From Microgenomates group bacterium Gr01-1014_7 (GTDB lineage: Bacteria; Patescibacteriota; Microgenomatia; Daviesbacterales; UBA10151): a DNA stretch of 64,000 nucleotides. Location: the NCBI GenBank assembly GCA_007376405.1, contig VMGD01000006.1:19337-83336 (forward strand), given 5' to 3'. The translations under genes and the position numbers were made by a program. Of the stretch, positions 8,011-54,061 are shown piece after piece. Under the pieces are notes generated by a model. That model did no database searches. It was not told the origin of the DNA and saw only the letters and a program-made list of their open reading frames with translations. Within the stretch, counting starts at the first letter, position 1. Every line of letters begins with the position of its first letter.

Positions 8011-9026
8011 AAAATACCTCCCAGGATGATACCTCCAACAAGTAGTGCTGCAAACAATTTGCCTTGAGAGGATAAGCTCAGGGCTGCTGCACCCAGAATA
8101 ACACTTCCCAATATATAAAACAAGGAGATTTGAGAGTGACTAAAACCCTGCTCTAAAAGCTTATGGTGCAAATGTCCACTATCTCCCCAGACAGGAGATT
8201 TACCCTGCAGGATTCGGCGCAAAAATGTATAGGTAAAATCGGCTGCTGGGATTAAAAGCACCAGTCCTGCTGTTGCCACTTTCGCACCGGATAAAATAGC
8301 CAAAACAGCAATCATAAATCCCAGGATAGTTGAGCCGGAAAAACCGGGAAAAATTTTGGCCGGGTACCAGTTAAAAACTAAAAGACCCAAAGAGGAGCCA
8401 GCTGTAATAAAGGCCAGTTTGGCCACATTTACTTGGGAGGGGTCTTGCAGAAAAGTAAATTTTAAAGATAGTAAACCTAAGATAACTGCTGCCACGCTAA
8501 CTATTCCGGGCATTTGCCCGTCAACCCCCTTTGACCAGTTAATCATATTCATTACCCAGACAATCCAGATTATTGCCAACAGTTGGGGTAAGTATTGAAA
8601 TATATCCAGATGAATAATTCCACCCAGAGGATTGGTCACAAAATTAATTCCGATTCCACTGACAACAACCACAGCTGCGGCTATAAATTGACTAACAAGT
8701 CGAATGTAAGGGGATAAATTTTGATATTTATCATCTAAAAGTCCAATGAAAAGAAGAATAAATAAAGAAATTAAAATTCCCAAAGTAGTTGCTTGCAAAG
8801 GGATAAAAGCAAATATCGCAACAAAAAGTGCAATAAATACCGGCAAACCTCCTGCTCTTGGAACAATTCTCTGCTGGGTATGAGCGGGGTGAGGTCTAAT
8901 CTTTGGATTGTCCAAGAGATTAAATCTTTTAGCCAAACTAATGGTTGGATGAATTGCAAAAATTGTGATCAAAAAAGCTATGATTGCAGGTAAGAAAAAT
9001 TCCATTTTATAAGAAAAAAATTCCAT
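7956..9026 (-). CDS. glycosyltransferase family 4, MraY/WecA-like phospho-sugar transferase
   Basis: Polytopic membrane protein; DDKYQNLSPYIRL and NMINWSKGVDG (NxxNxxDGxDG-like) motifs. Start may be the first ATG (9026) or the duplicated second ATG (9005). Confidence 0.7.
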   Translation of the reverse strand: MEFFSYKMEFFLPAIIAFLITIFAIHPTISLAKRFNLLDNPKIRPHPAHTQQRIVPRAGGLPVFIALFVAIFAFIPLQATTLGILISLFILLFIGLLDDKYQNLSPYIRLVSQFIAAAVVVVSGIGINFVTNPLGGIIHLDIFQYLPQLLAIIWIVWVMNMINWSKGVDGQMPGIVSVAAVILGLLSLKFTFLQDPSQVNVAKLAFITAGSSLGLLVFNWYPAKIFPGFSGSTILGFMIAVLAILSGAKVATAGLVLLIPAADFTYTFLRRILQGKSPVWGDSGHLHHKLLEQGFSHSQISLFYILGSVILGAAALSLSSQGKLFAALLVGGIILGGILWLNFFGQFLKQRAPDNG

Positions 9027-9036
9027 TTTATAAGAA
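8995..9036. repeat. perfect 21-bp tandem duplication (aaaaattccattttataagaa x2) spanning the start of the GT4 gene
   Basis: Read directly from sequence. On the minus strand it duplicates the start codon plus 6 codons (MEFFSYK-MEFF...). Confidence 0.9.
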
Positions 9037-13766: not shown

Positions 13767-15926
13767 TCAGGTGCCAACCACTTCAAAGGTAGAGCCACCT
13801 GAGTTTTTGGAAACTTCAATTCTGACCGGGAATTCTTCTTTCAGTTCTTCCAGATGGGTGATGATAAGAATTTTTTCAAAGTCATTTTTTATTGTATCCA
13901 GCACTTCTACAATTCTGGTCCGACCCTCTGCATCTTGTGTTCCAAACCCTTCATCAATTACCAAAAATTGCAATTTTGCCCCGGCTCTTCTGGTTAAAAG
14001 TTTCGACAGAGCAATTCGGATTGCAAAATTTACCCTGAACGCTTCCCCTCCTGAATATAAAGAATACTCTCGTTCGCCCATCTCATCGGAAATAATAATG
14101 TCCAGGGTTTCCACAATTCCTTTTTCCCCGTCCTCCATTTTAGTTTTGGTTTCTTTTTGGGTTTGCAAGCGTATATTCATCCGGCCGGAAGTTAGTTTAG
14201 CCAGCAGTCTGTTGGCTTCCGTCTCTATTTCAGGAATGGCAGTTTCAATAATCATGGCCTGAATCCCCTTTTTTCCAAAAGCCAAAGTTAGCTCCTCAAA
14301 GCCTCCTTTTTCTTTTTCCAGATTATTTTTTTCGAGTTTTTTTTGCTCAAATAATTTTTCCAGCTGCTCGGAGCGGCTAATCAGTTCGGTTGCCTGTCCC
14401 AGTAAATTTCTGGCTTCTTTTTCTTCTGTCCTTAATTTGTTTAACTCCAGCTCTTTTTGATTAACTTGAATTTCCAGTTTAGTTAAATCATCAGCCAAAT
14501 TAGGCAGTTTATTTAAATCCTGCTCCAATTTTTCAATTTGGGATTTTTTATTTTTAAACAGTTCCCGCAGCTCTACCACCACTTTTTTCTCGGATTCTAG
14601 CGTTGCCTGGTCAGCAATCAGTTTTTCTCTTTTACCCTGCAGAAGTGAGATTTCCTGAAGTTTTTTTAAGGTTTCCTGGTATTTATGGTCATCTAATTTT
14701 ATGGAACTGCTTTCCGTTTGAAGTTTTAGGATTGCTTTTTCTTCATCATCAGTTTTAATCCCGCTGATAATTTTTTCTAATTCTTTAATCTTTAATCTTA
14801 AATCTTTAATCACTTTGTGCTTATTATCTTTTCCAATTTCTTGTCCGCAAGTTGGGCAATTGGCAAATTCTTTGCTCAAAGCTTCAAGATGGGATTTAAT
14901 TTCCTCTAATTTTTTTCCTAAATTTTCTCTTTCCTGGTTTTTTAAAGCCAGTGCCGATTTTATTTTAGTTAATTTATTTTCCAGCTCTAATTTTTTTTGG
15001 GAGAAAGTTGTATATTCTTCTTTTTCTTTTTCTAAAATCTTTAGTTTTTTTAATTTTTCCTCAAAGCCCGGCAGTTCTTCCAATTCTTTTTCCAGAGTTT
15101 TTATTTTGCCTGCTCTCATCTTTCCCTGGGAAAGAATCTCATTTAGCTCGGTTTGTAAACCAGTTAGAGTTTGTTTTAATTTATTCTGCTGTCCATAGGT
15201 GGCATTTAAGGCAGCTTTTGTTTCAATTTGGCTTTTTAACTCTTTTTCTAAAGAGCTAATTTTTATCTCTATTTCAGTTATTTTTTTCTCCGCTAAAATT
15301 TTCTTTTCTTGACTGGCTTCTTTTTGGGACAGTTCTGCCTCTATTTCCAAAAATTGGTATTCCAAAAGTTTTAATTTACTTGTCAAATCTTTAACTTTCT
15401 CTTTGGCTTTTTCTTCCAGCTTGTCATAATGGGATAGTCCCAAAATATCTGCCAAAATCCTTTTCCTGTCGGTTGGACCTTTGGTGGTAAATTCATCGGC
15501 ATGTCCCTGACGCAGGAATGAGGAATTGGTAAAAGTTTCAAAAGTAAGATGCAGAGTATCAATAATTTTTTGCTGGGTGGTTTTGATGATTCCTTCTGTT
15601 AAATTATTTTTGCCTGACCAAAATTCCAGCGCGCTTGAGCCCCCATGTTTTAGCGACCGCTGTCTTTTTACAATGAATGTATGTCCATCCAGTGAAAAGC
15701 TAAATTCGACAAACATATTTTGAGCGCCAAGATGGACAAGCTGGTCGGATGAATCCCCGGCCCGTGATGTCCCCCAAAGACACCAGGTTATTGCATCCAG
15801 CAGAGAGGATTTCCCGGCTCCGTTTGGTCCGGAAATAGCAGCCAGATGAAATTTAGTAAATCTAAGTTCCGGTACATTTTCTCCGTAACTTGTAAAATTT
15901 GATAACGTTAATTTAACTGGTATCAT
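13767..15926 (-). CDS. sbcC: SbcC-like SMC-family ATPase (exonuclease SbcCD subunit C)
   Basis: Walker A SGPNGAGKSSLLDAI, long coiled coil with central CPTCGQ zinc hook, signature SGGEAFRVNFAIRIAL, Walker B LVIDEGFG. Confidence 0.85.
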   Translation of the reverse strand: MIPVKLTLSNFTSYGENVPELRFTKFHLAAISGPNGAGKSSLLDAITWCLWGTSRAGDSSDQLVHLGAQNMFVEFSFSLDGHTFIVKRQRSLKHGGSSALEFWSGKNNLTEGIIKTTQQKIIDTLHLTFETFTNSSFLRQGHADEFTTKGPTDRKRILADILGLSHYDKLEEKAKEKVKDLTSKLKLLEYQFLEIEAELSQKEASQEKKILAEKKITEIEIKISSLEKELKSQIETKAALNATYGQQNKLKQTLTGLQTELNEILSQGKMRAGKIKTLEKELEELPGFEEKLKKLKILEKEKEEYTTFSQKKLELENKLTKIKSALALKNQERENLGKKLEEIKSHLEALSKEFANCPTCGQEIGKDNKHKVIKDLRLKIKELEKIISGIKTDDEEKAILKLQTESSSIKLDDHKYQETLKKLQEISLLQGKREKLIADQATLESEKKVVVELRELFKNKKSQIEKLEQDLNKLPNLADDLTKLEIQVNQKELELNKLRTEEKEARNLLGQATELISRSEQLEKLFEQKKLEKNNLEKEKGGFEELTLAFGKKGIQAMIIETAIPEIETEANRLLAKLTSGRMNIRLQTQKETKTKMEDGEKGIVETLDIIISDEMGEREYSLYSGGEAFRVNFAIRIALSKLLTRRAGAKLQFLVIDEGFGTQDAEGRTRIVEVLDTIKNDFEKILIITHLEELKEEFPVRIEVSKNSGGSTFEVVGT

Positions 15927-16037: not shown

Positions 16038-16628
16038 ATGCTAGAAACAGGAAATTATATTTTCCTTCCATATACTGATGCTGAAAAAGAAATCCTTATT
16101 GCAGATGGAGCTGCAGTTTATTTATTGGAAGGACAATCTATCGGTAGTCAAAGAAGGGGTGGAAGAAGGTTTTGGTCAGATTGGCACAAAGGCCATCCAA
16201 TAGAAGATATAACCTCAAGGATTTATGAAGTAGCTATTTGGCCAAATGATTTCTTTGTCCCCAGAACTTTTAATGAACCCAAACTCGAACAGGAAGAATT
16301 AGTTAGAGTTAATAGGGAGGAAACTCGATTAAGGTTAGGAATTCCAAATTATACAGAAATTCTACCGGAAGCCCCAGAGGTAACTGAAGTTCTATTTAAA
16401 CACTTTGATTTAACCAGAGTCCGTTTACTTGGGGCAAAATATAAAACAAAAGATGGACACTGGACTCACATTAGAACTAATACTGCTATTAATGAATCCG
16501 GTTCCGTCGTCGCCCATGTCGGTTGCTTCCGCGCTGTCTACGGTCCGGACGTCCACGACTGGTATGCCCGCGAGGGCGATCCTGATCTTGCTGCCGCCCG
16601 CTGGGGAGTGAAATTATTAAGGACTTGA
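16038..16628 (+). CDS. DGR1 target (variable) protein; VR at C-terminus
   Basis: 196-aa ORF whose last ~36 codons (16498-16605) are the variable repeat paired with the TR at 16928-17035. Confidence 0.8.
   Translation: MLETGNYIFLPYTDAEKEILIADGAAVYLLEGQSIGSQRRGGRRFWSDWHKGHPIEDITSRIYEVAIWPNDFFVPRTFNEPKLEQEELVRVNREETRLRLGIPNYTEILPEAPEVTEVLFKHFDLTRVRLLGAKYKTKDGHWTHIRTNTAINESGSVVAHVGCFRAVYGPDVHDWYAREGDPDLAAARWGVKLLRT
16498..16605 (+). repeat. DGR1 variable repeat (VR)
   Basis: 108-bp repeat at the 3' end of the target ORF. Differs from the TR at 16 positions: 15 where the TR has A, plus 1 non-A at the 5' edge. Ends in the GC-rich IMH-like gctgccgcccgctggg. Confidence 0.85.
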
Positions 16629-16927
16629 ATTTTGGTTTCTTGGTAATTTTGGATTTTTACTTCTTGGTTTTCCGAATTTTTTCTGATAAATTATCTAAAG
16701 TAGGCAGTGAGGAGTTAAACAAGTTTTTAGCTTCCGCCTATTTCTAGAATCTTTCATAGCCGGAGCCATGCACCAATTGGTTTATGGGGGTGCTTAAGGA
16801 AATTTTACTAGACACTCCGGATATTTCTCTTTGTTCTTGTACCAGACGGTGCAGGGCGGATAAAATACAGTGGAAAGAGCGATCAATCCACAGTGAGTTT
16901 TTGTACGGAGAGATATTCTGTAAACGG

Positions 16928-17035
16928 CCGGTTCCTACGTCGCCAATGTCGGTTACTTCAACGCTGACAACGGTCCGAACGTCAACAACTGGAATGCCCG
17001 CAAGAGCAATCCTAATCTTGCTGCCGCCCGCTGGG
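16928..17035 (+). repeat. DGR1 template repeat (TR)
   Basis: Non-coding copy of the VR. In the VR frame it reads GSYVANVGYFNADNGPNVNNWNARKSNPNLAAARW, with many AAC/AAT codons. Carries A wherever the VR differs. Confidence 0.85.
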
Positions 17036-17059
17036 TAGTTTCTAGAAATTTTAAAAGAT

Positions 17060-17420
17060 TCAGGGTAAGTTTTGCTTGGTGGAACGAATCCATCCGCCAA
17101 GCATCTTGCCTATTTCTTGCAAGTATCCTTGCAGCTCCAAATAATGCTTATCTTTTAAAGCAAGGCTATCTTTGGCAAGTCTTAAAAGAATTTTTAATAA
17201 ATCTAGTTTTATGCTTATTTGTTGTAAGGTAGATATTTTGTTATTTGAGGTTGGAATTGATAAAAGCAGTTCAAAGATTTCCAGGGTTAAATTATCCAAT
17301 TTTTGACCAAGAGTATACTTTTTAGTTTTAGGAAATTTAATGATTAAATAACTTAGGTTTTGATAAAAATCGTAGAGTTTAGCAAAAATCGGGATGTCAA
17401 GGCTAGAGACAGGCAGTGTG
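17060..17420 (-). CDS. avd: DGR1 accessory variability determinant (Avd-like four-helix-bundle protein)
   Basis: Frame open from about 17420 to 17060. Reads ...LDIPIFAKLYDFYQNLSYLIIKFPKTKKYTLGQKLDNLTLEIFELLL...YLELQGYLQEIGKMLGGWIRS, matching the four-helix-bundle/Avd consensus. No canonical in-frame ATG; the ORF caller started it at a TTG (17299). Confidence 0.6.
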
Positions 17421-17428
17421 TGTGTGTG
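17416..17428. repeat. (GT)6.5 dinucleotide microsatellite in the avd1-RT1 divergent intergenic region
   Basis: gtgtgtgtgtgtg lies directly downstream (minus sense) of an out-of-frame ATG (17432-17430). One extra unit would put that ATG in frame with avd1. Confidence 0.9.
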
Positions 17429-17442
17429 GCATTCTTTAAAAG

Positions 17443-18426
17443 ATGATTACTCATAAATCGTATTCTCAACTTACATCAGTAGAAAATTTATTTCAAGCTT
17501 GGAGTGAATTTAAGGTAGGCAAAAGAAAAAGAAAAGATGTGCAAGAGTTTGAAAGAAATCTGGAAGATAATCTATTTGATTTACGTTTTAAATTAAAAAC
17601 CAAAACATACAGACACGGAAACTATTTTGCATTTTATGTGCATGATCCAAAACAAAGGCATATTCATAAAGCATCGGTACAAGATAGGGTAGTTCACCAC
17701 CTGCTTTATCAATATTTATACACCCTATTTGATAGTAGTTTTACTTTTGATTCATATTCATGCAGGTTGGAAAAAGGAACTCATAAAGGGATATTACGGC
17801 TTGAGAATTTTTTGCGGAAAGTGAGCAGAAATTATACAGGGTCTTGCTGGGCGCTAAAACTGGATATAAGGAAGTTTTTTGCAAATGTTGACCACGATAT
17901 TTTAATGGAACTTTTAAAGAGAAAAATTAATGATAAAGATCTTTTGCGGCTGCTTAAAGAAGTAATTGATAGTTTTCCTCAGGGCATTCCTCTTGGTAAT
18001 CTAACATCCCAGATATTTGCCAATATTTATATGAATGAATTAGACCGGTTTATTAAACATAAACTTAAGATCAAATATTATATCCGCTATGCAGATGACT
18101 TTTTAATACTGTCTATTAATAAAAATAATTTGCAGTCTCTAATTAAACCAGTTGATAAATTCCTGCAAGAAAAATTAAAACTCGAACTTCATCCTAAAAA
18201 GATTATCCTAAAGAGATTTGATTGGGGAATAGATTTTCTAGGGTATATTGTTCTGCCTCAGTATATTTTACCAAGGACCAAAACTAAGAAGAGGATGTTT
18301 AGAAAATTAAAAGAGAAATTAGAGTCAGAAAATTTTAATCAGTCGCTGCAATCTTATATTGGGTATTTAAGTCATGCTAATGCATATAATTTATCGAACA
18401 AGATTGCCACGCAACGCTTCCAATGA
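17443..18426 (+). CDS. DGR1 reverse transcriptase
   Basis: 327 aa. RT motifs include IRYADDFLIL (YxDD) and the DGR-diagnostic PLGNLTSQIFANIYM (IGxxxSQ instead of the group II intron QGxxxSP). Confidence 0.9.
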   Translation: MITHKSYSQLTSVENLFQAWSEFKVGKRKRKDVQEFERNLEDNLFDLRFKLKTKTYRHGNYFAFYVHDPKQRHIHKASVQDRVVHHLLYQYLYTLFDSSFTFDSYSCRLEKGTHKGILRLENFLRKVSRNYTGSCWALKLDIRKFFANVDHDILMELLKRKINDKDLLRLLKEVIDSFPQGIPLGNLTSQIFANIYMNELDRFIKHKLKIKYYIRYADDFLILSINKNNLQSLIKPVDKFLQEKLKLELHPKKIILKRFDWGIDFLGYIVLPQYILPRTKTKKRMFRKLKEKLESENFNQSLQSYIGYLSHANAYNLSNKIATQRFQ

Positions 18427-18511: not shown

Positions 18512-18874
18512 TTAATTACCTGTTTTTCCGGTGATAATAGTGAGTTTTCCAATAAGAGATTTTCTGGTAGATTTATTTAGAAGAGATGTTAATTTTTTAT
18601 CTATCTGTTCAAGTGTTAAATTTGCAGACACTCCAATAACTCCGGTTGATTTACTTGTCGGGGCTAATGTTTTAAAATCTTTAATATTGAGAGTGACTAG
18701 GATTCTACTTTCCTTACCCGCGAACTGATAGACTTTAGGGTCTGGTAAGGCGCTTTGCCCATAATCACCGGTAATATGTTTAACATCAAATCGGCTATTT
18801 GTAATAGGCAAGCTTTGACGAAAGTAAAATCCCTCATCCAGCAATAGCTTGTGTTTGTAAAATCTCCGAGTCAT
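18512..18874 (-). CDS. DUF5615 family PIN-like protein (second copy)
   Basis: KLLLDEGFYF N-terminus and TLNIKDFK motif, similar to the 2328-2672 gene. Confidence 0.6.
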   Translation of the reverse strand: MTRRFYKHKLLLDEGFYFRQSLPITNSRFDVKHITGDYGQSALPDPKVYQFAGKESRILVTLNIKDFKTLAPTSKSTGVIGVSANLTLEQIDKKLTSLLNKSTRKSLIGKLTIITGKTGN

Positions 18875-19103
18875 TCCTAGATTGGCTTAAATCCTCAACC
18901 AATTCACTAATTGCGCCCTCAATAGTTTTTAGCGGTACCCAAGGATAGCCATCATGAATTGATTCAACAGTACAGCCTTCTTTTAAACGTTGAACTATAA
19001 CAGCAATTGGTATCCTGGTGCCTGCAATGCATGGTGCGCCACCCATAATATCTGATTTAGATAATATATAAGCTTTTTTCTTCATATGTTTATTATACCA
19101 CAT
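18834..19103 (-). CDS. DUF433 domain protein (second copy)
   Basis: ILSKSDIMGGAPCIAGTRIPIAVIVQRLKEGCTVESI matches DUF433. Overlaps the downstream DUF5615 gene by 41 nt. Confidence 0.6.
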   Translation of the reverse strand: MWYNKHMKKKAYILSKSDIMGGAPCIAGTRIPIAVIVQRLKEGCTVESIHDGYPWVPLKTIEGAISELVEDLSQSRNDSEILQTQAIAG

Positions 19104-19118
19104 TAATAGTATGACAAA

Positions 19119-20267
19119 CTAAGATTCAAGCAGTTGGGCAGCGAATTTTTCCAAAGTTTTTATTTTTTCAGCAGAGAATTTTTTTGCTTTAAAGTAACTC
19201 TGCAACGCCTCAACAGGAGTTAATCTTTCAACTTCTTCTTGTCCGTCTATTTTTAACCTTTCTTTTCTTTCAACATTCCGGGAAATTCCGGCAATGTAAT
19301 GAGCAGAGGATAGAGCCTTTTTAATTTTATCCATCTCCAAATTTTGCTCTAAATCAGCAGGGATATTTAAAGTTAGTCTAACGACTTTATCAGCTACATC
19401 ATGTTTTGAAATTTCATCTAAAATAGTTTGGGTAGGATTGGAATCGTTAGCTTTTAAGTCAATATCAATAGACAAAAACCTACGACAATTAGTAGGGATA
19501 AATTGGAAGTTAGTGGTCTTTGCAATTTCCACCAGACATATTCCTTTTTCTTCTTTTTCTTCGCCAAAATCAATCCTATGAGGGGAGCCGGCGTAAACTA
19601 CTAAAGGATCCTTGGATAAAACCTGGTGTTTGTGAATATGACCCAAAGCCACATAAGATAATCTTCTGTCTTGAAGTAAAGGTAGGGGGACTGTGACATC
19701 ATTTCCAATTGCCATACCTTTTTCTGAACCATAACTTGCGCCTTCTACCTCGCAATGCGATAAAAATATGGCAGGGGATTTTGGTGTAATTTTGTCATAT
19801 AAAGATTTTAATTTATCTCCAACGGTTTTGTATTCGTCTTTGTGTAACCAGGGTAAAGTTATAACTTGCAGAGTGCCTGATTTAGTGGGTATTTTTAAAA
19901 GTTCGGGTTTTCGGGAAACCCAGACATTATCTATTTCCAGGGCAGAGTAAATATCCAGAGTATTGGCTTTGCCCTCTGCATTGGGAGTGTCATGATTGCC
20001 TACAACTAAAACCACGGGAATTCCGGCTTTGGCAATTTTTTTAATTCTCTCTCCAAACCCCCTTTGCTGGGTTGGATTTGGATCACGGGTTTTGTAAGCA
20101 TCTCCTGCAAAAACCACAGCATCAACTTGATTTTCTATTGCCGTATCAACAATAAAATCAAAGGTTTTTAGAAAATCCAAAAGGCGGGTAGATAAACCTG
20201 TTTGCGGATCCAGTTTGGCATAATTTTCCATGCCAATATGAATATCCGCAAAGTGTAATAATTTCAT
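19119..20267 (-). CDS. sbcD: exonuclease SbcCD subunit D (Mre11-like metallophosphoesterase)
   Basis: MKLLHFADIHIG, GDAYKTRDP, GNHD and GHIHKHQ phosphoesterase motifs. Start placed at MKLL (20267); the 15 upstream in-frame codons are encoded by a GC-rich hairpin and are probably 5' UTR. Confidence 0.9.
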   Translation of the reverse strand: MKLLHFADIHIGMENYAKLDPQTGLSTRLLDFLKTFDFIVDTAIENQVDAVVFAGDAYKTRDPNPTQQRGFGERIKKIAKAGIPVVLVVGNHDTPNAEGKANTLDIYSALEIDNVWVSRKPELLKIPTKSGTLQVITLPWLHKDEYKTVGDKLKSLYDKITPKSPAIFLSHCEVEGASYGSEKGMAIGNDVTVPLPLLQDRRLSYVALGHIHKHQVLSKDPLVVYAGSPHRIDFGEEKEEKGICLVEIAKTTNFQFIPTNCRRFLSIDIDLKANDSNPTQTILDEISKHDVADKVVRLTLNIPADLEQNLEMDKIKKALSSAHYIAGISRNVERKERLKIDGQEEVERLTPVEALQSYFKAKKFSAEKIKTLEKFAAQLLES

Positions 20268-20377
20268 GTTTGGATTACGTCCCCCGAAGGCGGGAGGCAA
20301 GGTTCTGCACACGCGAAGTATAATATATCACATACTGAAGCGTGAAGCAGGTCCTTATATCATGGTAAAATGGGCAA

Positions 20378-40355: not shown

Positions 40356-41399
40356 GTGAGCAGGGAATTTATGGAAGGATCAGAATCCGGAGAACAATTT
40401 TTACACAGAAAATACAAGGATTTAAATACAGACCCAACTGTAGTTTCTGCAGCCAACCGCCATGCAAGACGCCTGGGTATGGAACCTCCGGAAAAGGATG
40501 ATTACGGAACTCGAATAAAAAATTACCTCGATAGGTTAAGCGAGATCGTTAACCCTCCGAAAGTTGCAGGAGAACCGGATACTGAACAAGAGCGTAAAAG
40601 AGACAGAAATCTGTCGATGCTCAAAACTGCCCTTTATAATAATTTTGTTATAAAGCCGGGGAATATTCCTGAAAGCTACTTTGATGCAATAAAAAGGAAG
40701 CATCGTGAAGAAGGCTACGGTGATATTGAAATTCCGGATGATTACCGCCGTGAACTTTCCGAAACTATAATTGCCGATCAAAGAAACTCTCTAGACAACT
40801 GGGTTGATTATTTAGTCTCTGATGATGCGAAGTATCCAAATTGGCTAAAATATTTGGCTTTCCGCAGTGTGCTGCGTATGGGTAGGTATGATAAGCAAAG
40901 GAAAACTTTTACTGAAAGGACAAGTGGCGGCGGCACTGTCAGTCCTTTCCCCGAATTAAACCGTGAAGCCCTTTCAATTGTTCTTGGAGACATGGAGAAG
41001 AAAAATCTAGCTACTAAAGAATCACAAAGCAGCAGGTTGGATTTAGATTTTACATCACGTTTTGATATATCCCTGGAAGCAAAACAAAAATACATGCAAT
41101 CCCTAGACAACGGGAATTTTGCTCAAGCTTATGCCCTGGCGATAGAAGAGTTTAAACCGATAGCAGAAGAATTACTACAAATTACCCAAGGGGAATGGGT
41201 GAGATATCCAAGGGGTTCTGACCATCTGCCTCTGGTGAGGTCAATCTCCAATTATGGAACCGGCTGGTGTTTACGGGGAGAGGCAACTGCCCAAAGGTAC
41301 CTTACACGCGATAAAAATGATCTTTTTGTGTATTACTCTCTGGATTTAAATGGTAAACCAACTGTCCCTAGGGTATGTAATCGGAAATCTCAATTTTGA
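40356..41399 (+). CDS. hypothetical protein immediately upstream of the DGR2 target
   Basis: 347-aa ORF with no recognisable family. Confidence 0.45.
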   Translation: MSREFMEGSESGEQFLHRKYKDLNTDPTVVSAANRHARRLGMEPPEKDDYGTRIKNYLDRLSEIVNPPKVAGEPDTEQERKRDRNLSMLKTALYNNFVIKPGNIPESYFDAIKRKHREEGYGDIEIPDDYRRELSETIIADQRNSLDNWVDYLVSDDAKYPNWLKYLAFRSVLRMGRYDKQRKTFTERTSGGGTVSPFPELNREALSIVLGDMEKKNLATKESQSSRLDLDFTSRFDISLEAKQKYMQSLDNGNFAQAYALAIEEFKPIAEELLQITQGEWVRYPRGSDHLPLVRSISNYGTGWCLRGEATAQRYLTRDKNDLFVYYSLDLNGKPTVPRVCNRKSQF

Positions 41400-41608
41400 T
41401 ACTTTTAGGAAGTCTCAACTTTGAGAATTAAGCTGTAATAACTCGTCATTCTGGGGAACGAAGTGACACCAGAAATCAGATTGCTGAGGTTAGAGGTGTT
41501 GCCAAAGATGAACACCTTGATTCTTATATAGGTGAAGTTGTAGATGGTAAACTCTCTGAACCGGAATTTGAGAAAGAAGGCAGAGCCTGGAAGAAAAAGA
41601 GTCAGGAT

Positions 41609-42574
41609 ATGAAAAAACTAACTGAAATTGAGCAAAAAAGTAAATCAGGCCTTAAATTGTCACAGGATGAGCTGATCTTTTTATATGAAATAGATTCATC
41701 AATTGAGGGATTTGGATACGGCGATGATCCAAGAGTAAAGGAGCTGCGTTTTCAGAGAAAACCGGAAGAAGATATGCTAATTATTTTTGGTTCCGAGCCG
41801 GACCAGATTGCCGGATCAGCCGGGGGAATCACCGCAAATACCAGAGCATATGTTGGCCCACTGGAAAAAGGTATTTTTGACAAATTTGAACAATTTGGAA
41901 TAGAGCATATTTATACCTCTTTCCCTGAAGGAAAAATAAGAAGGGAAACTGTTGAAATTGGGGGAACAGACTTTAAGCAGATAGCTCAAGAATTAGAGGA
42001 TAAACTTAATATAATAGATACCCTAACTTGGGAGAAAACAGGAGAGATTCTTAAACAGGTTGAGGGCGGATCAGTTCAAATTAGTGCTGAGACTACTCAA
42101 TTTTTAAGGCAACTATTTGAAAGGCAGATCAATGTTTCAGGATATGCTCTAGATATGCTTAAAAATTCGGAATTCACCACCAGTCCCACACCTATAAACA
42201 TAGATACAGTTAGACTAAAAATTTCTGCACTGGACCTTAAGGGTACACCCACTACAGATCAAGTATATGCCAGAGCTAACGAACTAGGACTTGATCTTTG
42301 TCCAGCAGAAGTAGGTCCCCACAAAAGATTTAAAGATACTAATGAACCAATGGGAGATTGGGAATATATTGCTATGAAGCAAATGACTGACCGCGGTGGC
42401 CATCTGGATGTCTTCGTGCTCGGTCGTGATGGCCGTGGTTTGTGGTTGGCTGGCCGTTGGGCGGATCCTGACCATGGGTGGCCTCCCGAGGATGAGATTG
42501 TTTTTCGTCTCCGCAAGTCTGAAACTCAACCACTTAAACCCTCTGGATTCTTTTCCAGATTTTTGAGCCGTTGA
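41609..42574 (+). CDS. DGR2 target (variable) protein; C-terminal CLec-like VR
   Basis: 321 aa. The C-terminal TDRGGHLDVFVLGRDGRGLWLAGRWADPDHGWPPEDEIVFRLRK is the VR. Its frame is open upstream to 41432 without another start codon. Confidence 0.8.
   Translation: MKKLTEIEQKSKSGLKLSQDELIFLYEIDSSIEGFGYGDDPRVKELRFQRKPEEDMLIIFGSEPDQIAGSAGGITANTRAYVGPLEKGIFDKFEQFGIEHIYTSFPEGKIRRETVEIGGTDFKQIAQELEDKLNIIDTLTWEKTGEILKQVEGGSVQISAETTQFLRQLFERQINVSGYALDMLKNSEFTTSPTPINIDTVRLKISALDLKGTPTTDQVYARANELGLDLCPAEVGPHKRFKDTNEPMGDWEYIAMKQMTDRGGHLDVFVLGRDGRGLWLAGRWADPDHGWPPEDEIVFRLRKSETQPLKPSGFFSRFLSR
42386..42516 (+). repeat. DGR2 variable repeat (VR)
   Basis: 131 bp. Differs from the TR (42847-42977) at 20 positions, all with A in the TR. 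Confidence 0.9.
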
Positions 42575-42846
42575 TACTTTGAAACTTTGTTTGAAATTTT
42601 TATATAATTATTACGGATAGGTTGTTTTGAACGGCTACGGCTTTTTGAGGCCTTTCCGGCAAATGTAAATTGAGAACAAGTAAGGTTACGGCTTTGCCTG
42701 GAGTGATCTACATTCTGTCATTAAAAAAAGAAATACTTGGTGTGGTGTGCTTTTGCGGATTCATCCGCGGATAAAATACAGCCTGGCGTCTTCCGCCAGA
42801 TAGTGGATTACACAGGCAGTGAGGTTAGTAGGGCACATCATACATT

Positions 42847-42977
42847 ACTGACCGCGATGGCCATCTGAATGTCTTCAAGCTCAATCGTGATGGCAATGGT
42901 TTGTGGTTGAATGACAATTGGGCGAATCCTGACAATAGGTGGAATCCCGAGAATGAGATTGTTTTTCGTCTCCGAAA
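42847..42977 (+). repeat. DGR2 template repeat (TR)
   Basis: In the VR frame it reads TDRDGHLNVFKLNRDGNGLWLNDNWANPDNRWNPENEIVFRLRN, with eight AAT codons. Confidence 0.9.
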
Positions 42978-43334
42978 CTATTTCTTTCCGCGTCTAACCG
43001 GCGCGGTTTTTTGTAGACCTAAACTTCTCTTCCAGCCCCAAAGCATCTTTCCGATCTCATCCAGCTTAACTGCAATATCCCCATATTGTTTATGGGAAAT
43101 AAGTTTAGCTTCCCAAGCAGTAGAAATTAGGAATTTAATAATATCTACTATAAAAATACAATCGGATAATTTATCTGCCTTTTTCTCTTTTTCGGTAAAA
43201 TATGCAGTATATGATAATTCTAAAAGGTCGAGGAATTTATTTTCTATCCTTGAGCCTGTTGTAAACCGCCCGGACCGGGGAATATGAGGAGAAATATTCA
43301 TCCAAATCAAATATCCTTCCTTGATCCGGTTCAA
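42978..43334 (-). CDS. avd: DGR2 accessory variability determinant (Avd-like four-helix-bundle protein)
   Basis: 118 aa; C-terminal half FLISTAWEAKLISHKQYGDIAVKLDEIGKMLWGWKRS matches the four-helix-bundle/Avd family. Its stop codon abuts the TR end. Antisense to the TR and RT, as in DGR1. Confidence 0.7.
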   Translation of the reverse strand: MNRIKEGYLIWMNISPHIPRSGRFTTGSRIENKFLDLLELSYTAYFTEKEKKADKLSDCIFIVDIIKFLISTAWEAKLISHKQYGDIAVKLDEIGKMLWGWKRSLGLQKTAPVRRGKK

Positions 43335-43351
43335 TATGGAAGATTTTTCAT

Positions 43352-43370
43352 GAGAGAGAGAGAGAGAGAG
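43352..43370. repeat. (GA)9.5 dinucleotide microsatellite at the 5' end of DGR2 RT
   Basis: tgagagagagagagagagag directly follows an ATG at 43350. The RT reading frame runs through the tract but is +1 relative to that ATG. Confidence 0.9.
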
Positions 43371-43495
43371 TTAGGGAGCTTTTCCATGCCAGATATAATT
43401 CTATCATTTCACTGGAAAATTTACTGGAATCATGGCATGAATTTTTAAGAGGTAAGAAAAACAGAAAAGATATTGCAACTTTTTCAATCCGGTTT

Positions 43496-44362
43496 ATGGA
43501 TAATGTCCTTATTTTGAACGAGGAACTCTTAAAAAAGACATATCAGCACGGAGGTTACTATGCTTTTAAAATAAACGACCCGAAACCAAGGAATATCCAC
43601 AAGGCCAATGTAAGGGATCGGATTGTCCACCATGCCATCTTTAGAATTCTTTACCCTTACTTTGAGAAAAAATTTATCTTTGATTCATACTCCTGCAGAT
43701 TAAATAAAGGCACCCATAAATCTATTTACAGATTCAGGGATTTATCAAGGAAAGGGTCTGTAAATAATACAAAACCCCTTTGGTTATTAAAAGGAGACAT
43801 CAGGAAGTTTTTTGCCAATATTGACCACGATATTTTAAAAAATATTTTACAAAGATATATTATTGATGAAGAAATTTTGTGGTTGATGGGAGAAATTATT
43901 GATAGTTTCCGGCCTGGTCTGCCACTTGGCAATGTAACCAGTCAGCTTTTTATTAATATTTATTTAAATGAATTTGACCAGTTTGTTAAACGGGATTTGA
44001 AAGTTCACAGTTATATCCGATATTGTGATGATTTTGTGATTATTCACACGGATAAAGTTTATTTAGAAGGACTTATCCCTAAAATATCACAGTTTTTAGA
44101 AGATGAATTAAAACTTTCACTTCATCCGGATAAAGTTTTTATTAAAAGACTCTCTTTGGGAGTGGATTTTCTGGGATGGGTACATTTTTCCCATCATCGG
44201 GTTTTAAGAACTGCTACCAAAAAGAGGATGTTCAAAAGGCTCAAGGGTAATCAACCTAACGAGACGCTAGCCTCTTATTTGGGCTTACTGAAACATGGCG
44301 ATACCTATAAACTTGTAAAAAAATTAAGGATGATAACTACGGAAAATGATTTAAATCATTGA
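43496..44362 (+). CDS. DGR2 reverse transcriptase (intact ORF from an internal ATG; conserved N-terminal region continues upstream to about 43325)
   Basis: RPGLPLGNVTSQLFINIYL (DGR IGxxxSQ motif) and IRYCDDFVII (YxDD). Upstream in-frame codons ...FHARYNSIISLENLLESWHEFLRGKKNRK align with the N-terminus of RT1 (THKSYSQLTSVENLFQAWSEFKVGKRKRK) but lack an in-frame ATG in the reference sequence. Confidence 0.8.
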   Translation: MDNVLILNEELLKKTYQHGGYYAFKINDPKPRNIHKANVRDRIVHHAIFRILYPYFEKKFIFDSYSCRLNKGTHKSIYRFRDLSRKGSVNNTKPLWLLKGDIRKFFANIDHDILKNILQRYIIDEEILWLMGEIIDSFRPGLPLGNVTSQLFINIYLNEFDQFVKRDLKVHSYIRYCDDFVIIHTDKVYLEGLIPKISQFLEDELKLSLHPDKVFIKRLSLGVDFLGWVHFSHHRVLRTATKKRMFKRLKGNQPNETLASYLGLLKHGDTYKLVKKLRMITTENDLNH

Positions 44363-44370
44363 AACAGAGG

Positions 44371-44631
44371 TTAGCGATAAGTTTGGGTAGTACGGCGTTT
44401 GATATCAACAATAATAACCTCTTTATTTTCTTCATCAATAAAATAAAAAACTCGATAATCACCGACTCTGATTCTATATAATGGAGGAATCCTGGAGGCA
44501 ATTTTATCAAATCCTCTGGGTTTTGGATCATTTTTGAGCTGAACTATTTTTTTGGCAATTAGTAACTGATAATCTTTTGGAAATTTTTTTAAAGCTTTCT
44601 GTGCCCGAGGTGAGTAAACGAGGTTATGCAT
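44371..44631 (-). CDS. RelE/ParE family toxin
   Basis: 86 aa; KKFPKDYQLLIAKKIVQLKNDPKPRGFDKI...YRIRVGDYRVFYFIDEENKEVIIVDIKRR fits the RelE/ParE fold pattern. Confidence 0.75.
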   Translation of the reverse strand: MHNLVYSPRAQKALKKFPKDYQLLIAKKIVQLKNDPKPRGFDKIASRIPPLYRIRVGDYRVFYFIDEENKEVIIVDIKRRTTQTYR

Positions 44632-44929
44632 CTAATTTAAGCTTCTTCATCAACTTTTCATGAGAAATACCCTTGCCTTTTTTAACAACGTCGAGTTCTT
44701 TATATAAAGAATCAATATAACCGGGTTGAACCGTATCTTCTTGAATATCTACCAGCTCTAAATAGGTATTTAAATCCAGTAAAATAGCTTTAGGTTCGCC
44801 ATGTTGGGTAATAATAACTTGATTTCCTTTGCGAGGCATGTTATCTAGAATACCGCTTAAATCCCGACGCAGATCATCCGCACCGATAAAGTTCTTTTTA
44901 AGCATGTCGGACAGAGATATTTGTTGCAT
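44624..44929 (-). CDS. Phd/YefM family antitoxin
   Basis: LSGILDNMPRKGNQVIITQHGEPKAILLDLNTYLEL is a typical Phd/YefM N-terminal domain. Overlaps the toxin start. Confidence 0.7.
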   Translation of the reverse strand: MQQISLSDMLKKNFIGADDLRRDLSGILDNMPRKGNQVIITQHGEPKAILLDLNTYLELVDIQEDTVQPGYIDSLYKELDVVKKGKGISHEKLMKKLKLDA

Positions 44930-46147: not shown

Positions 46148-46175
46148 TGACTTTTGTACAAATTTGTACTAATAT
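46148..46175 (+). promoter_or_regulatory. sigma70-like promoter TTGACT-17-TAATAT with embedded palindrome TGTACAAATTTGTAC (putative antitoxin operator)
   Basis: Read from sequence. The -10 ends 8 nt before the ATG at 46184, implying a leaderless or near-leaderless transcript. Confidence 0.45.
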
Positions 46176-46183
46176 GTACAAAT

Positions 46184-46492
46184 ATGACACAAGTAATGAA
46201 AGCGTCAGTTGTAAGGCAGCAATGGAGCCAACTGCTTAATCAGGTATTTACCGACCAAACAAGGATAGTGGTTGAAAAAAGCGGTATTCCTGTAGCAGCT
46301 GTTATTTCAGCTAAAGAGTTAGAGCGGCTTACTAGAATAGATGAACAAAGACAAGCACGTTTTAAGGTGCTGGATGAGATACGAGGAGCTTTTGAGAATA
46401 TACCTGTTAAGGAGCTCGAGAAAGAAGTAAACAAAGCGTTAGCGCAAGTCCGGGCAGAAAATCGGGCTAAAAGAGCATTAAATAAAAAGTGA
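46184..46492 (+). CDS. Phd/YefM-type antitoxin (VapB-like)
   Basis: MTQVMKASVVRQQWSQLLNQVFTDQTRIVVEKSGIPVAAVISAKELERL is an antitoxin fold; overlaps the downstream PIN gene by 4 nt. Confidence 0.6.
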   Translation: MTQVMKASVVRQQWSQLLNQVFTDQTRIVVEKSGIPVAAVISAKELERLTRIDEQRQARFKVLDEIRGAFENIPVKELEKEVNKALAQVRAENRAKRALNKK

Positions 46493-46914
46493 TTTCAGCA
46501 GTTTTAGATACTAATATTTTAGCCTCGGGTACTGTTACTGCCTTAACCCCTCCGGGACAGATACTTGATAGATGGTGTGACGGACAGTTTGAGCTAATTG
46601 TATCAGAGCATATTATTGAGGAATTGGAAAGCACCCTCAAAAAGCCATATTTTCAAAAACATCTTAGTACAAAGGCTAAAATAGCATATATGGAACTTTT
46701 ACAAACTGAAACAACCGTTACTCCAATAACTGTAAATGTTAAAGGGGTGGCTACCCACCCTGAAGATGATTTGGTGCTTGCAACAGCAATTTCCGCTAAA
46801 GCTGATTATCTGGTTACCGGGGATGGGCCGTTAATTAGAAAAGTTGGCAAAAAATATAAAGGCGTCACATTAATCAGTCCAACAGATTTTCTTGAAATAC
46901 TTAAAGAGCTGTAA
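46489..46914 (+). CDS. PIN domain toxin (VapC-like, TIGR00305 type)
   Basis: MISAVLDTNILASG..., conserved acidic residues ...EELES... and DYLVTGD. Confidence 0.75.
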   Translation: MISAVLDTNILASGTVTALTPPGQILDRWCDGQFELIVSEHIIEELESTLKKPYFQKHLSTKAKIAYMELLQTETTVTPITVNVKGVATHPEDDLVLATAISAKADYLVTGDGPLIRKVGKKYKGVTLISPTDFLEILKEL

Positions 46915-51168: not shown

Positions 51169-53097
51169 ATGGCTAAGATTGTGGGGATTGATTTAGGAAC
51201 AACAAATTCAGTAGTGGCAGTCATGGAAGGTGGGAAGCCCAAAGTGATCCACTCTTCGGAGGGGGAAAATATTATTCCCTCTGTGGTTAATCCTGGAAAA
51301 AATATTGTGGGAAGAGTGGCCAAGCGGCAATCGATTGTTAACCCCAAAGAAACTATTTTTTCCATAAAGAGGCTAATGGGCCGGAAATTTAAAGACTCTG
51401 AGGTGCAAAGAGATATTAAGTGGCTTCCTTATGAGATTAAAGAGGGTAAAAACGGCATGGCAGTTGTGGAAGTAGAGGGCCATGAATATACTCCCCAGGA
51501 AATTTCCGCCCAGATTTTGCAAAAAATTAAAGCTGATGCCGAGTCCTATTTAGGGGAAAAAGTAACAGATGCTGTAATTACAGTTCCTGCTTACTTTGAT
51601 GATGCCCAGCGCCAGGCTACTAAACAGGCAGGGGAAATTGCAGGGCTTAATGTTTCTCGGATTATAAATGAACCAACTGCAGCAGCGCTGGCTTATGGCC
51701 TTGATAAATCCCATGCCCATACTATTGCGGTTTATGACCTGGGTGGTGGTACTTTTGATATTTCCATTCTGGAGCTTGGAGACGGAGTAATTGAAGTAAA
51801 AAGCACTAATGGCGATACTCACTTAGGAGGAGATGATTTTGATCAGATAATTTTAGATTTCTTGGCAGAAGAATTTAAAAAAACAGAAGGAATTGATTTA
51901 AAAGGAGACAGGCAGGCCTTGCAGAGACTGCGAGATGCAGCCGAGAAAGCCAAGGTTGAACTCTCATCTACTCAGGAAGCTGCAATCTCCATTCCCTTTG
52001 TCACTGCGAATGCTAGTGGTCCAAAGCATTTGGAAATGAAGTTAAGTAGGGCCAAGCTGGAGGCAATGGTTAAGCCTTTAATTGATAAAACCTTTGATGC
52101 TGTAAAAGCAGCCTTAAAAGATGCCAAGCTGGAAGCTTCTAAAATTGATGAGATAGTTCTGGTTGGAGGGATGACCCGTATGCCTTCTGTTCAAAAGTCG
52201 GTGCAGGACTTTTTTGGGAAAGAGCCACATAAGGGAATCAACCCGGATGAAGTGGTGGCAGTTGGAGCAGCAATCCAGGGAGGGGTGTTGGGCGGGGAAG
52301 TTAAAGACGTATTGCTTTTGGATGTAACCCCCTTAACTTTGGGAATTGAAACTTTGGGGGGTATCCGAACACCCCTGATAAACCGGAATACAACCATTCC
52401 AAGTTCAAAATCGGAAATTTTCTCAACAGCAGCGGATAATCAAACCTCAGTTGAAATAAATGTTTTACAAGGTGAAAGAGAGATGGCAGCTGATAATAAG
52501 TCTTTGGGTAGATTTATTCTGGATGGGATTCCACCTGCACCAAGGGGTGTTCCACAAATTGAAGTTACTTTTGATATTGATGCCAATGGGATTTTAAATG
52601 TTACGGCCCATGATAAAGCTACAGGCAAAAAGCAAAATATTACTATTACAGGCTCAACAGGTTTAAGTAAAGAAGAAGTAGAGAAAATGACTAAAGAGGC
52701 AGAAGCTCATGCGGAGGAAGATAAAAAAAGAAGGGAAGAAGTGGAAATCAGAAATCAGGCAGATACTCTGGTTTTTACAGCAGAAAGAAGTTTAAAAGAC
52801 GGCGGAGACAAAGTCCCGGCTGATGTAAGGACAGATGTTGAGCAAAAATTAAATGATCTTAAAGGCGTTGTCCAAACTGCGTCTCCGGAGGATTTAAAAC
52901 CCAAAATGGAAGCATTGTCTGAAGCGTTGCAAAAAGTTGGGGCTTCTATGTATGAAAAACAGGGTACAGGTGACAGTGGACAGGGTACAGCAGAACAAAC
53001 CCCTGGTGAAGAGCCAAAAACAGAGGACTCGTCCTCCGAAGCCTCGGCGAAGGAGGAGGCTGTTGAAGGGGAAGTGGTGGAAGAAGAAAAGAAATAG
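51169..53097 (+). CDS. dnaK: molecular chaperone DnaK (Hsp70)
   Basis: [30 protein letters not shown] and the C-terminal EEVD-like tail. The stop codon lies in the first unit of a 14-bp tandem repeat. Confidence 0.97.
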
Positions 53098-53166
53098 AAG
53101 AAAAGAAATAGAAGAAAAGAAATAGAAGAAAAGAAATAGAAGAAAAGAAATAGAAGAAAAGAAATA
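53083..53166. repeat. perfect tandem repeat, 6 x 14 bp (gaagaaaagaaata), between dnaK and dnaJ
   Basis: Read from sequence. The first unit contains the dnaK stop; the array ends 10 nt before the dnaJ ATG. Confidence 0.95.
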
Positions 53167-53176
53167 AGAGTAATGA

Positions 53177-54061
53177 ATGGCAAAAAAGGATTACTACGAA
53201 ATATTGGGAGTTTCTAAATCTGCCAGTGAGGCGGAAATTAAATCTGCTTATAGAAAACTTGCCCGAGCGCATCATCCTGATATAGACAAATCCTCCGGAG
53301 CAGCTGAACGATTTAAAGAAGTTTCCGAGGCCTACCAGGTTTTATCTGATCTTCAAAAGAAACAAAGTTATGACCAATTTGGCCATGCTGCATTTGACCC
53401 TTCGGCACGCTCAGGGCAAGCAGGTGGATGGCAAACATATTCCTGGTCAACAGGAGGCGGAAATCCCAACATCCAGTTTGACTTTGGCGGATTTGAAGAC
53501 CCCTTCGAATTATTTGAGCAAATCTTTGGCGGAGCAGGTTTTGGAGAAGCTTTTAGAAGACGCCCAACTTACCAGCTTAATTTAAGTTTTGATGAAGCAA
53601 TAAAAGGAGCGACCAAAGAAGTTGAAATTGAATCAAGGAATTCCCAGGGAAGATTGGAGAGAAAGAGGATGAAAATTAAGGTCCCGCCAGGCGTGGACAA
53701 TGGCACTAAAATGAGGTTTGGGGATTTGGATATTGTTTTTCAGGTCAATAGAAGTCCTGAATTTTTAAGAGAAGGGGCAGATATTTTTTCGGAAATCAAA
53801 GTAACTATCCCCCAGCTGGTATTAGGGGATGTGTTTGAAGTTTTGACTGTGCAGGGAAAAGTTAAGGTAAAGGTGCCGCCAGGCACCCAACCCGGGTCTT
53901 TGGTTAAACTTAAAGGAAAAGGCGCTCCCAGAATAGGCGGAGGTCATGGTGATCACTATGTCAGGGTCAATCTGGAAATCCCTCAAAACCCTTCCAAACA
54001 GGAAAAGCAACTTTATGAAGAGTTATATAATCTCGGTTCCAAGAAAAAAAGCTGGTTTTAA
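53177..54061 (+). CDS. dnaJ: J-domain co-chaperone (DnaJ/CbpA-like, no zinc-finger domain)
   Basis: [32 protein letters not shown] domain, G/F-rich linker, C-terminal substrate-binding domains. No CxxCxGxG repeats. Confidence 0.8.

Follow-up and report, generated by a model that had tools for sequence, protein, structure and literature searches.

The 64,000 nucleotides (nt) analysed here, which we call the window, are positions 19,337 to 83,336 of contig VMGD01000006.1 (GenBank assembly GCA_007376405.1) of Microgenomates group bacterium Gr01-1014_7, a member of the Patescibacteriota. The window holds two diversity-generating retroelements (DGRs), DGR1 and DGR2, and this report concerns a short GA repeat at the start of the DGR2 reverse transcriptase (RT) gene, RT2. 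RT2 and avd2, a gene of the bAvd family on the opposite strand, overlap 5' end to 5' end; the overlap measures roughly 100-120 nt and has the repeat midway along it (Table 1). RT2 is a DGR-clade reverse transcriptase: its best solved relative is bRT of a Bordetella phage (8ub7, E 1.5e-38), it matches Pfam RVT_1, and its motif LPLGNVTSQ is the (I/L)GxxxSQ signature. Both avd2 and avd1, its counterpart in DGR1, match PF22296 bAvd (5e-14 and 2.8e-20, respectively), and both lie on the strand opposite to the RT. Mismatches between the template repeat (TR) and the variable repeat (VR) of DGR2 fall at TR adenines in 20 of 21 cases, and 15 of the 17 differences in DGR1 are likewise at adenines. Because these differences are adenine-specific, both DGRs appear to have been active in the past.

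The GA tract is the sole period-2 array that Tandem Repeats Finder reports in the 64 kb, and 100 dinucleotide-preserving shuffles give an expectation of 0.00 matches to its pattern. A regular-expression scan for dinucleotide runs of at least five units found, besides the tract, only (GT)6.5 at 17416-17428, in the 5' coding end of avd1. Both repeats exceed the length at which slippage sets in, and (GA)9.5 forms part of the 5' coding end of two genes at once, its codons supplying Arg-Glu repeats to RT2 and Ser-Leu repeats to Avd2. From 43325 the RT2 frame reads SGSIWKIFHERERERVRELFHARYNSIISLENLLESWHEFLRGKK, with ...ERERERVRELFHARYNSIISLENLLESWHEFLRGKKNRKDIATFSIRF immediately preceding ATG 43496, and upstream of that ATG it contains no ATG, GTG or TTG. 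An earlier note on this DNA, made from the letters alone, had observed that the RT frame runs on upstream of ATG 43496 and that its N-terminus aligns with that of RT1. This proved correct. RT2 and RT1 (17443-18426) are 50% identical across RT2 residues 12-325, and the N-terminal stretch of RT2 also matches residues 10-45 of bRT, in an alignment that begins at RT2 residue 16 and bRT residue 10. The conserved N-terminal region corresponds to the residues encoded at 43376-43495. Because the stretch before ATG 43496 aligns with both RT1 and 8ub7, the 288-amino-acid (aa) product found in public records would miss a conserved part of the protein, the equivalent of bRT residues 1-45. The earlier note had counted conservation of this truncated RT among relatives as evidence that would speak against a switch. 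The truncated form is not the conserved one, as relatives and the solved bRT alike keep the N-terminal ~45 residues.

Editing the tract in silico, from 6.5 to 12.5 GA units, shifts RT2 and avd2 into and out of frame and yields three states. With 8.5 or 11.5 units, that is, one unit fewer or two more than are present, a full-length RT2 is restored, just as the earlier note had calculated: ATG 43284 and ATG 43350 are both joined to the RT2 frame, which from ATG 43350 with one unit removed reads MRERERVRELFHARYNSIISLENLL... and is 336 aa long. Avd2 is then also in frame with its own ATG at 43387-43385, which in the window is out of frame by one repeat unit, the same unit whose removal repairs RT2. 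With 7.5 or 10.5 units RT2 is stopped by TGA 43351-43353 and Avd2 alone is read, from the ATG at 43407-43405, a start type ('MISLY...') that recurs in relatives L008, L017, L027 and P0214. At the actual 9.5 units neither gene has an ATG. RT2 is left without a canonical start, and Avd2 can begin at most at TTG 43334, the canonical in-frame avd2 starts lying only below the tract, first this TTG and then the ATG that gives the annotated 107-aa form.

ATG 43350, directly in front of the tract, had been named in the earlier note as the only ATG and as out of frame. It is indeed out of the RT frame, but it is not the only one, as ATGs also occur at 43284, 43336 and 43386. ATG 43284 is the counterpart of an ATG that relatives conserve ~66 nt upstream of the tract, and it would become the RT2 start at 8.5 or 11.5 units. 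ATG 43336 opens a mini-reading frame in the third phase (43336-43353, encoding MEDFS), whose TGA overlaps ATG 43350. ATG 43386 was considered as an RT2 start, having GGGAG 7 nt upstream, and was rejected since it is in frame 0 and not in the RT frame. Each of the two predicted starts is complementary to a His codon on the opposite strand: ATG 43284 lies antisense to the His codon of the Avd2 motif 'PHIPR', and the Avd2 ATG at 43385-43387 lies antisense to the His codon, CAT, of 'FHARY' in RT2. Both of these His residues are conserved in the subclade of relatives that carry GA tracts. The start of each gene is thus tied to a residue of the other.

A search with the repaired RT2 returned thousands of homologues, and 69 of the best 120 have RERERE near the N-terminus; it returned no in-frame version of RT2 itself, the next relative being 74% identical. 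We fetched 160 loci from Patescibacteria genomes and metagenomes, of which 149 could be evaluated for a repeat, 140 were non-redundant and used for repeat density, and 130 non-redundant loci served for phase counts. The junction between avd and RT carries (GA)n in 62 of the 149 evaluable loci (8-37 nt), poly-G in 76 (G7-G12) and (GT)n in three; after removal of redundancy, GA-class tracts of 8-37 nt remain in 54 relatives. The repeats always lie between the Avd body and the RT body. Across the 140 non-redundant loci, 133 repeats fall in the 130-nt junction and two in the remaining 596 kb, a density of 7.3/kb against 0.0034/kb elsewhere in the same loci, or roughly 2,000-fold, and ~95% of loci carry a tract. 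Its + strand is always G-rich (G, GA or GT). The type of repeat turns over between close relatives, from poly-C to TC, even within one 90% Avd cluster (P0292 versus P0208), and some loci have compound tracts of (GA)n followed by a G run (these observations concern L044, L073 and L121 as well). Because the type of repeat changes and its presence and position do not, it appears that mutability, rather than a sequence motif, is what has been conserved. One RT, P0084 (11 contigs; marine metagenomes, L162-L170), was rejected for comparison of tract length and serves as a negative control only: it is a lone RT beside a tRNA gene, with neither avd nor repeat tract, and it starts at a TTG directly before 'FAHTYNDIIS'.

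The earlier note had left it open whether RT2 is phase-variable or carries a plain frameshift, and had proposed that tract length be compared among related genomes. In relatives the tract is conserved at the same exact place while its length and phase vary, and all three phases are present in both the GA and the poly-G classes. In neither class did we find the one conserved direction of shift across homologues that would mark a programmed frameshift or slippage. The Avd ATG is in frame at 21 of 54 GA loci (25.3 under uniform phase) and at 22 of 73 poly-G loci (27.7), the RT ATG at 22 of 54 GA loci (25.0 under uniform phase), and the whole DGR is ON at 40 of 130 loci (31%), which is about the random-phase level. 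Moreover, tract length differs between otherwise identical stretches of DNA. L008 and L097 have GA tracts of 25 and 19 nt within 800 nt of 100% identical flank; L072 and L147 have GT tracts of 19 and 17 nt, leaving Avd OFF and ON, respectively, between identical flanks; and L115 and L119, again with identical flanks, have G11 and G9. One identical Avd found on ten contigs (P0286) goes with C10 on five of them, with C8 on two and with C11, C12 and C13 on the others, its in-frame form (P0208) having C9. Another, on seven contigs (P0269), has TC tracts of 25 nt on five and of 27 and 21 nt on the other two, with 23 nt in the in-frame form (P0195), and P0137 contigs have TC tracts of 21 nt on five and 23 nt on one. 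With the flanks identical and the tract alone differing, these cases bear the signature of a slipped-strand hot spot, and they include the GA/TC class of the window. The family evidence (a conserved tract of variable length, three phases and polymorphism between identical flanks) therefore favours phase variation over a plain frameshift.

The same counts bear on recoding, in which RNA polymerase slippage or a ribosomal shift (+/-2 on (UC)n/(GA)n, +1 on CCC-C) would yield in-frame RT and Avd, and the tract would set the level of expression rather than turn it on and off. Judged by their consensus sequences, most loci are out of phase, a condition more tolerable if expression were rescued in this way, and the commonest out-of-phase poly-G state does need a +1 shift (about 33 loci, versus 14 needing the other shift). 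CCC-C is prone to +1 shifting, and homopolymer slippage has been documented in bacteria; we know of no slippage or frameshifting on GA/UC dinucleotide repeats. However, all three phases occur, so that no single programmed shift fits, and length polymorphism is directly observed in the DNA. Nor did we see a conserved stimulatory structure, though no search aimed at one was made. We consider recoding an unlikely explanation of the tract, and it could coexist with switching at the DNA level.

The argument from phase requires that the tract be read as protein, and several observations indicate that the tract region is probably translated. The Avd proteins of relatives begin with M-x(3-8), then SLSLSL, PPP(P) or HTHTHT, a few residues and helix 1; in GA-class relatives the start is M-x(3-6)-SLSLSL-xxASIL. 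Relatives with degenerate tracts (P0122, P0124 and P0131) begin MTSPISSLENASIL..., and degeneration of the tract leaves the start and length of Avd unchanged, as in MTSPISSLENASILNRIKEGY. Close in-frame forms of Avd differ by whole SL pairs or by single prolines (P0132/P0298; P0172/P0252/P0262). The Pfam bAvd profile starts within a few residues past the tract, and in loci that are out of phase no canonical start is conserved on the way from the tract to helix 1. Only 41-49 nt separate the tract from the RT body in the GA subclade, which leaves no room for a separate RT start. Finally, the register of the Avd and RT starts is conserved. A phase in which both genes are ON exists in 46 of 49 GA loci, against 27.3 +/- 2.9 for randomised relative phases, and the states of the two genes are coupled, with 15 loci both ON, 4 and 2 mixed and 28 both OFF (Fisher p = 2.6e-7).

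It could be argued instead that the tract is a non-coding element: a spacer or 5' untranslated region of divergent promoters, a former of H-DNA (being homopurine-homopyrimidine) or an unstructured translation enhancer, with the starts of both genes beyond it and the frame irrelevant. The length of the tract, if it matters, would then act on transcription, as does the (TA)n of Haemophilus hifA/hifB. At L044, L048 and the majority of poly-G loci the tract does lie 9-31 nt upstream of the RT ATG; its + strand is always G-rich; and a random phase is what such an element would show. But in the window ATG, GTG and TTG are all absent from the RT frame between the tract and 43496, avd1 lacks a canonical start upstream of helix 1, the Avd N-termini of relatives with and without a tract show its position to be translated, and the Avd/RT register is conserved far beyond chance. 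A promoter consensus scan found no pair around the tract and a count no higher than shuffle expectation, with the reservation that the consensus may not fit the promoters of this phylum. We therefore regard a non-coding element as improbable. A role for the tract as Shine-Dalgarno (SD) sequence for RT was also considered and rejected, since poly-G loci mostly have it 10-31 nt from the RT ATG, which is too far, and GAGAG has no anti-SD match.

The (GT)6.5 of avd1 appears, from its position and phase, to be the same kind of switch. On the avd1 strand, (AC)6.5 separates ATG 17432-17430 (MPHTHT) from the avd1 body, LPVSSLDIPIFAKLYDF.... Only 4.5 or 7.5 units bring that ATG into frame, and only 5.5 or 8.5 units a second one at 17454-17452, so that the actual length is the sole phase of three without an ATG. 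Position 5 of the bAvd profile aligns 7 residues past the tract, and the first canonical start below the tract would remove a third of the bAvd domain. The fetched loci are all distant from RT1 (50-54% identity), and this tract was therefore examined through relatives of Avd1, the closest of which begin M-x(5-7)-HTHTHT-...LDIPIFAKLY. The tract in avd1, the position of the GA tract inside avd2 on the opposite strand and the occurrence of such repeats across the clade had gone unmentioned in the earlier note.

That DGR1 and DGR2 are both in the single phase that lacks an Avd ATG, that RT2 has no in-frame start, and that two assemblies have the same tract length would all be expected of plain decay, in which DGR2 and the avd1 of DGR1 carry fixed frameshifts and are becoming pseudogenes, the repeat having done no more than raise the chance of the mutation. 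Apart from this, however, RT2 keeps an undamaged frame of 345 codons, and the part before ATG 43496 is conserved. Avd2 and Avd1 are intact below their tracts, with one repeat unit as the sole lesion in each, and some two thirds of the relatives, from across the phylum, share this condition, their bodies intact and the repeat kept. We find decay quite unlikely on these grounds. An error of sequencing or assembly deserves far less credence still. Repeats are error-prone and the sequence comes from a metagenome assembly, but a second public assembly (L001; ENA ERZ27284378, a contig of 37.5 kb) is 100% identical across 5,889 nt and has the same 19 nt in a contig of different size, a dinucleotide tract of 19 nt is well within the accuracy of Illumina reads, and out-of-phase tracts occur at some 90 independent loci from many projects. 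A look-up of the exact 288-aa RT protein found just one further contig, which is identical, and no other tract length there. At its contig end (positions 1-168) L001 diverges from window 41306-41473, and its target gene is called as 388 aa, against 321 aa for the open reading frame (ORF) in the window.

We suggest that the GA tract is probably a conserved slipped-strand switch of phase by which DGR mutagenesis is gated. The tract would be a hypermutable contingency locus placed where the 5' coding ends of RT2 (+ strand) and avd2 (- strand) overlap in antisense, and there slipped-strand mispairing at replication would gain or lose GA units. DGR2 would be ON at 8.5 or 11.5 units, would make Avd only at 7.5 or 10.5 units, and would be OFF at 9.5 units; on the best-supported reading, DGR2 and the avd1 of DGR1 are presumably both in the OFF phase in the window. 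Mutagenic retrohoming needs both RT and Avd, as has been established for the Bordetella phage DGR, and the tract would for that reason gate hypermutation of the target gene at 41609-42574. Such gating would be stochastic and reversible and would take place in a subpopulation. At poly-G and GT loci the switch would act on Avd alone, and in the GA subclade on Avd and RT together. We infer that the window tract varies within its own population, that out-of-phase alleles are silent and that the switch has been selected as a regulator. For the phylum at large we are more guarded, and incline only slightly towards the view that a repeat switch for targeted hypermutation is conserved and under selection in the DGRs of Patescibacteria (DGR clade 2). 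In the GA subclade it would sit in an antisense 5'-5' overlap, with each start antisense to a conserved His codon of the other gene, and one length class would co-activate RT and Avd.

Several points weigh against this interpretation. Length polymorphism was seen in relatives, and the window locus itself is represented by two consensus assemblies, both with 9.5 units. L171 and L172, and several other pairs with identical flanks, show no length variation, and many such pairs may be one assembly deposited twice; for P0067 and P0297 the look-ups gave one tract length only, because most places are collapsed in them. The fraction of loci that are ON, being at the uniform expectation, also fits the frame not mattering, and the case that it does matter depends on predicted start codons. 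A start of Avd2 at TTG 43334 would cost only about 3 positions of the bAvd profile, and if Avd2 uses it, the window tract may control RT2 only. Near-cognate ATC, ATT and CTG codons at 43403-43413 could serve as leaky RT starts. Lastly, an RT ATG follows the tract in L044, L048 and most poly-G loci, and control of RT by the tract would therefore be specific to the GA subclade.

The arrangement closely resembles classical contingency genes. In lic1 of H. influenzae, (CAAT)n, in opa of Neisseria, (CTCTT)n, and in the poly-G genes of Campylobacter and Neisseria, as here, the repeat lies just past the start codon and its units shift the frame of the body; with ATGs in two frames there are three states, as with Avd2; and homologues have the tract in common, while near-identical genomes differ in its length. 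Those genes encode surface or restriction functions in host-adapted pathogens, whereas here the genes under the proposed switch are the machinery of another diversity generator in a free-living or episymbiotic groundwater Patescibacterium, and a single tract serves two genes, one on each strand. A single repeat between divergent genes also switches both in H. influenzae hifA/hifB, but there (TA)n lies where the divergent promoters overlap and alters the -35/-10 spacing and hence transcription, while the GA tract lies inside both coding regions and would act by reading frame. In phasevarions, whose mod methyltransferases are repeat-switched, and in repeat-switched mismatch-repair genes, which are reversible mutators, the switch is likewise upstream of a system that alters many phenotypes or the mutation rate, a second-order variation. 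Their effects are genome-wide, whereas the DGR mutator is aimed, through reverse transcription, at ~130 nt of one gene. With the BPP-1 DGR (mtd-avd-TR-brt) DGR2 shares a homologous RT, an Avd-family protein, adenine-specific TR/VR differences and a VR at the 3' end of the target gene. Unlike BPP-1, it has avd inverted and overlapping RT 5' to 5', a terminator-like hairpin after the TR and a repeat in the start region, and we know of no such repeat in the avd or brt of BPP-1.

Repeat-based phase variation and DGRs are each well known, and what appears to be new is an intragenic switch, as we read it, that would gate a targeted hypermutator and be read on both strands by overlapping divergent genes. 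A full-text literature search, incomplete in coverage and so no proof of absence, found no report linking DGRs with repeat-based phase variation, and to our knowledge the regulation of DGR mutagenesis is largely obscure. If the proposal is right, then throughout the phylum the mutator is kept off in most cells and is turned on at random in a few, which would make the mutation of a functional target protein less costly. The activity of Patescibacteria DGR clade 2 is below average (Roux et al. 2021, PMC8144416). A switch that is mostly off fits this observation and could explain the lower activity score of the clade in population surveys. Public annotations of RT and Avd, such as the 288-aa RT and the 107-aa Avd of this locus, would be systematically truncated, and the length of the tract in reads would be a marker of DGR activity in a sample. 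The bidirectional, frame-coupled layout of two genes would in itself be an unusual gene architecture.

Table 1. Features of DGR2 and DGR1, in coordinates of the window.
Feature	Position	Strand	Remarks
DGR2 target gene	41609-42574		VR at 3' end
DGR2 VR	42383-42516	+	Inside ORF 41609-42574
DGR2 TR	42844-42977	+	
Terminator-like GC hairpin followed by T-run	42988-43006	+	11 nt past TR2 end, within 3' end of avd2 (other strand); from consensus scan only
avd2 frame (bAvd family)	42978-43370	-	Open through the tract (LSLSLS) to TAA at + strand 43371-43373; PF22296
Upstream RT ATG, frame 0	43284-43286	+	Gives 'MRRNIHPNQISFLD...'; ORF 43284-43448
RT2 frame	43325-44362	+	Codon starts = 2 mod 3; opens after TGA 43322-43324, stop 44360-44362
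Tract-abutting ATG, frame 0 (same frame as 43284)	43350-43352	+	Candidate start of the earlier note
Simple-sequence repeat GAGAGAGAGAGAGAGAGAG	43352-43370	(GA)9.5 on +, (TC)9.5 on -	19 nt; proposed slipped-strand switch
Avd2 ATG	43385-43387	-	Predicted Avd2 start, MEKLPNSLSLSHEKSSILNRIKEGYLIW..., at 8.5 or 11.5 units; out of frame at 9.5
Second Avd2 ATG, antisense of RT2 'SIIS'	43405-43407	-	In frame only at 7.5 or 10.5 units (MIELYLAWKSSLTLSLS...)
288-aa RT2 ORF from first in-frame ATG	43496-44362	+	Form annotated in public records
DGR1	16038-18426		Layout same as DGR2
avd1 frame	17063-17446	-	No canonical start before TTG 17299, beyond helix 1 and FPK motif
Simple-sequence repeat of avd1	17416-17428	(GT)6.5 on +, (AC)6.5 on -	In 5' coding end of avd1; out of frame

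The hairpin beyond TR2 suggests that the TR2 RNA may not be co-transcribed with RT2, as it would end the TR transcript before RT2 is reached. Rfam has no family match anywhere in the window. Downstream of RT2 are two toxin-antitoxin-like pairs, ParE with Phd/YefM and a Phd/YefM-like protein with PIN (44371-44929 and 46154-46914). DGR1, together with a DUF433/DUF5615 pair (18512-19103), stands between genes for a Rad50/SbcC-like ATPase (13767-15926) and an Mre11/SbcD-like phosphoesterase (19119-20312), genes that are usually adjacent. Elsewhere in the window, a perfect tandem array, (AGAAGAAAAGAAAT) x6.1 at 53082-53166, begins within the final codons of dnaK (51169-53097) and occupies the space up to dnaJ (53177-54061), and a perfect 21-nt direct repeat in two copies (AAAAATTCCATTTTATAAGAA, 8995-9036) lies at the start of ORF 7956-9026 on the - strand.

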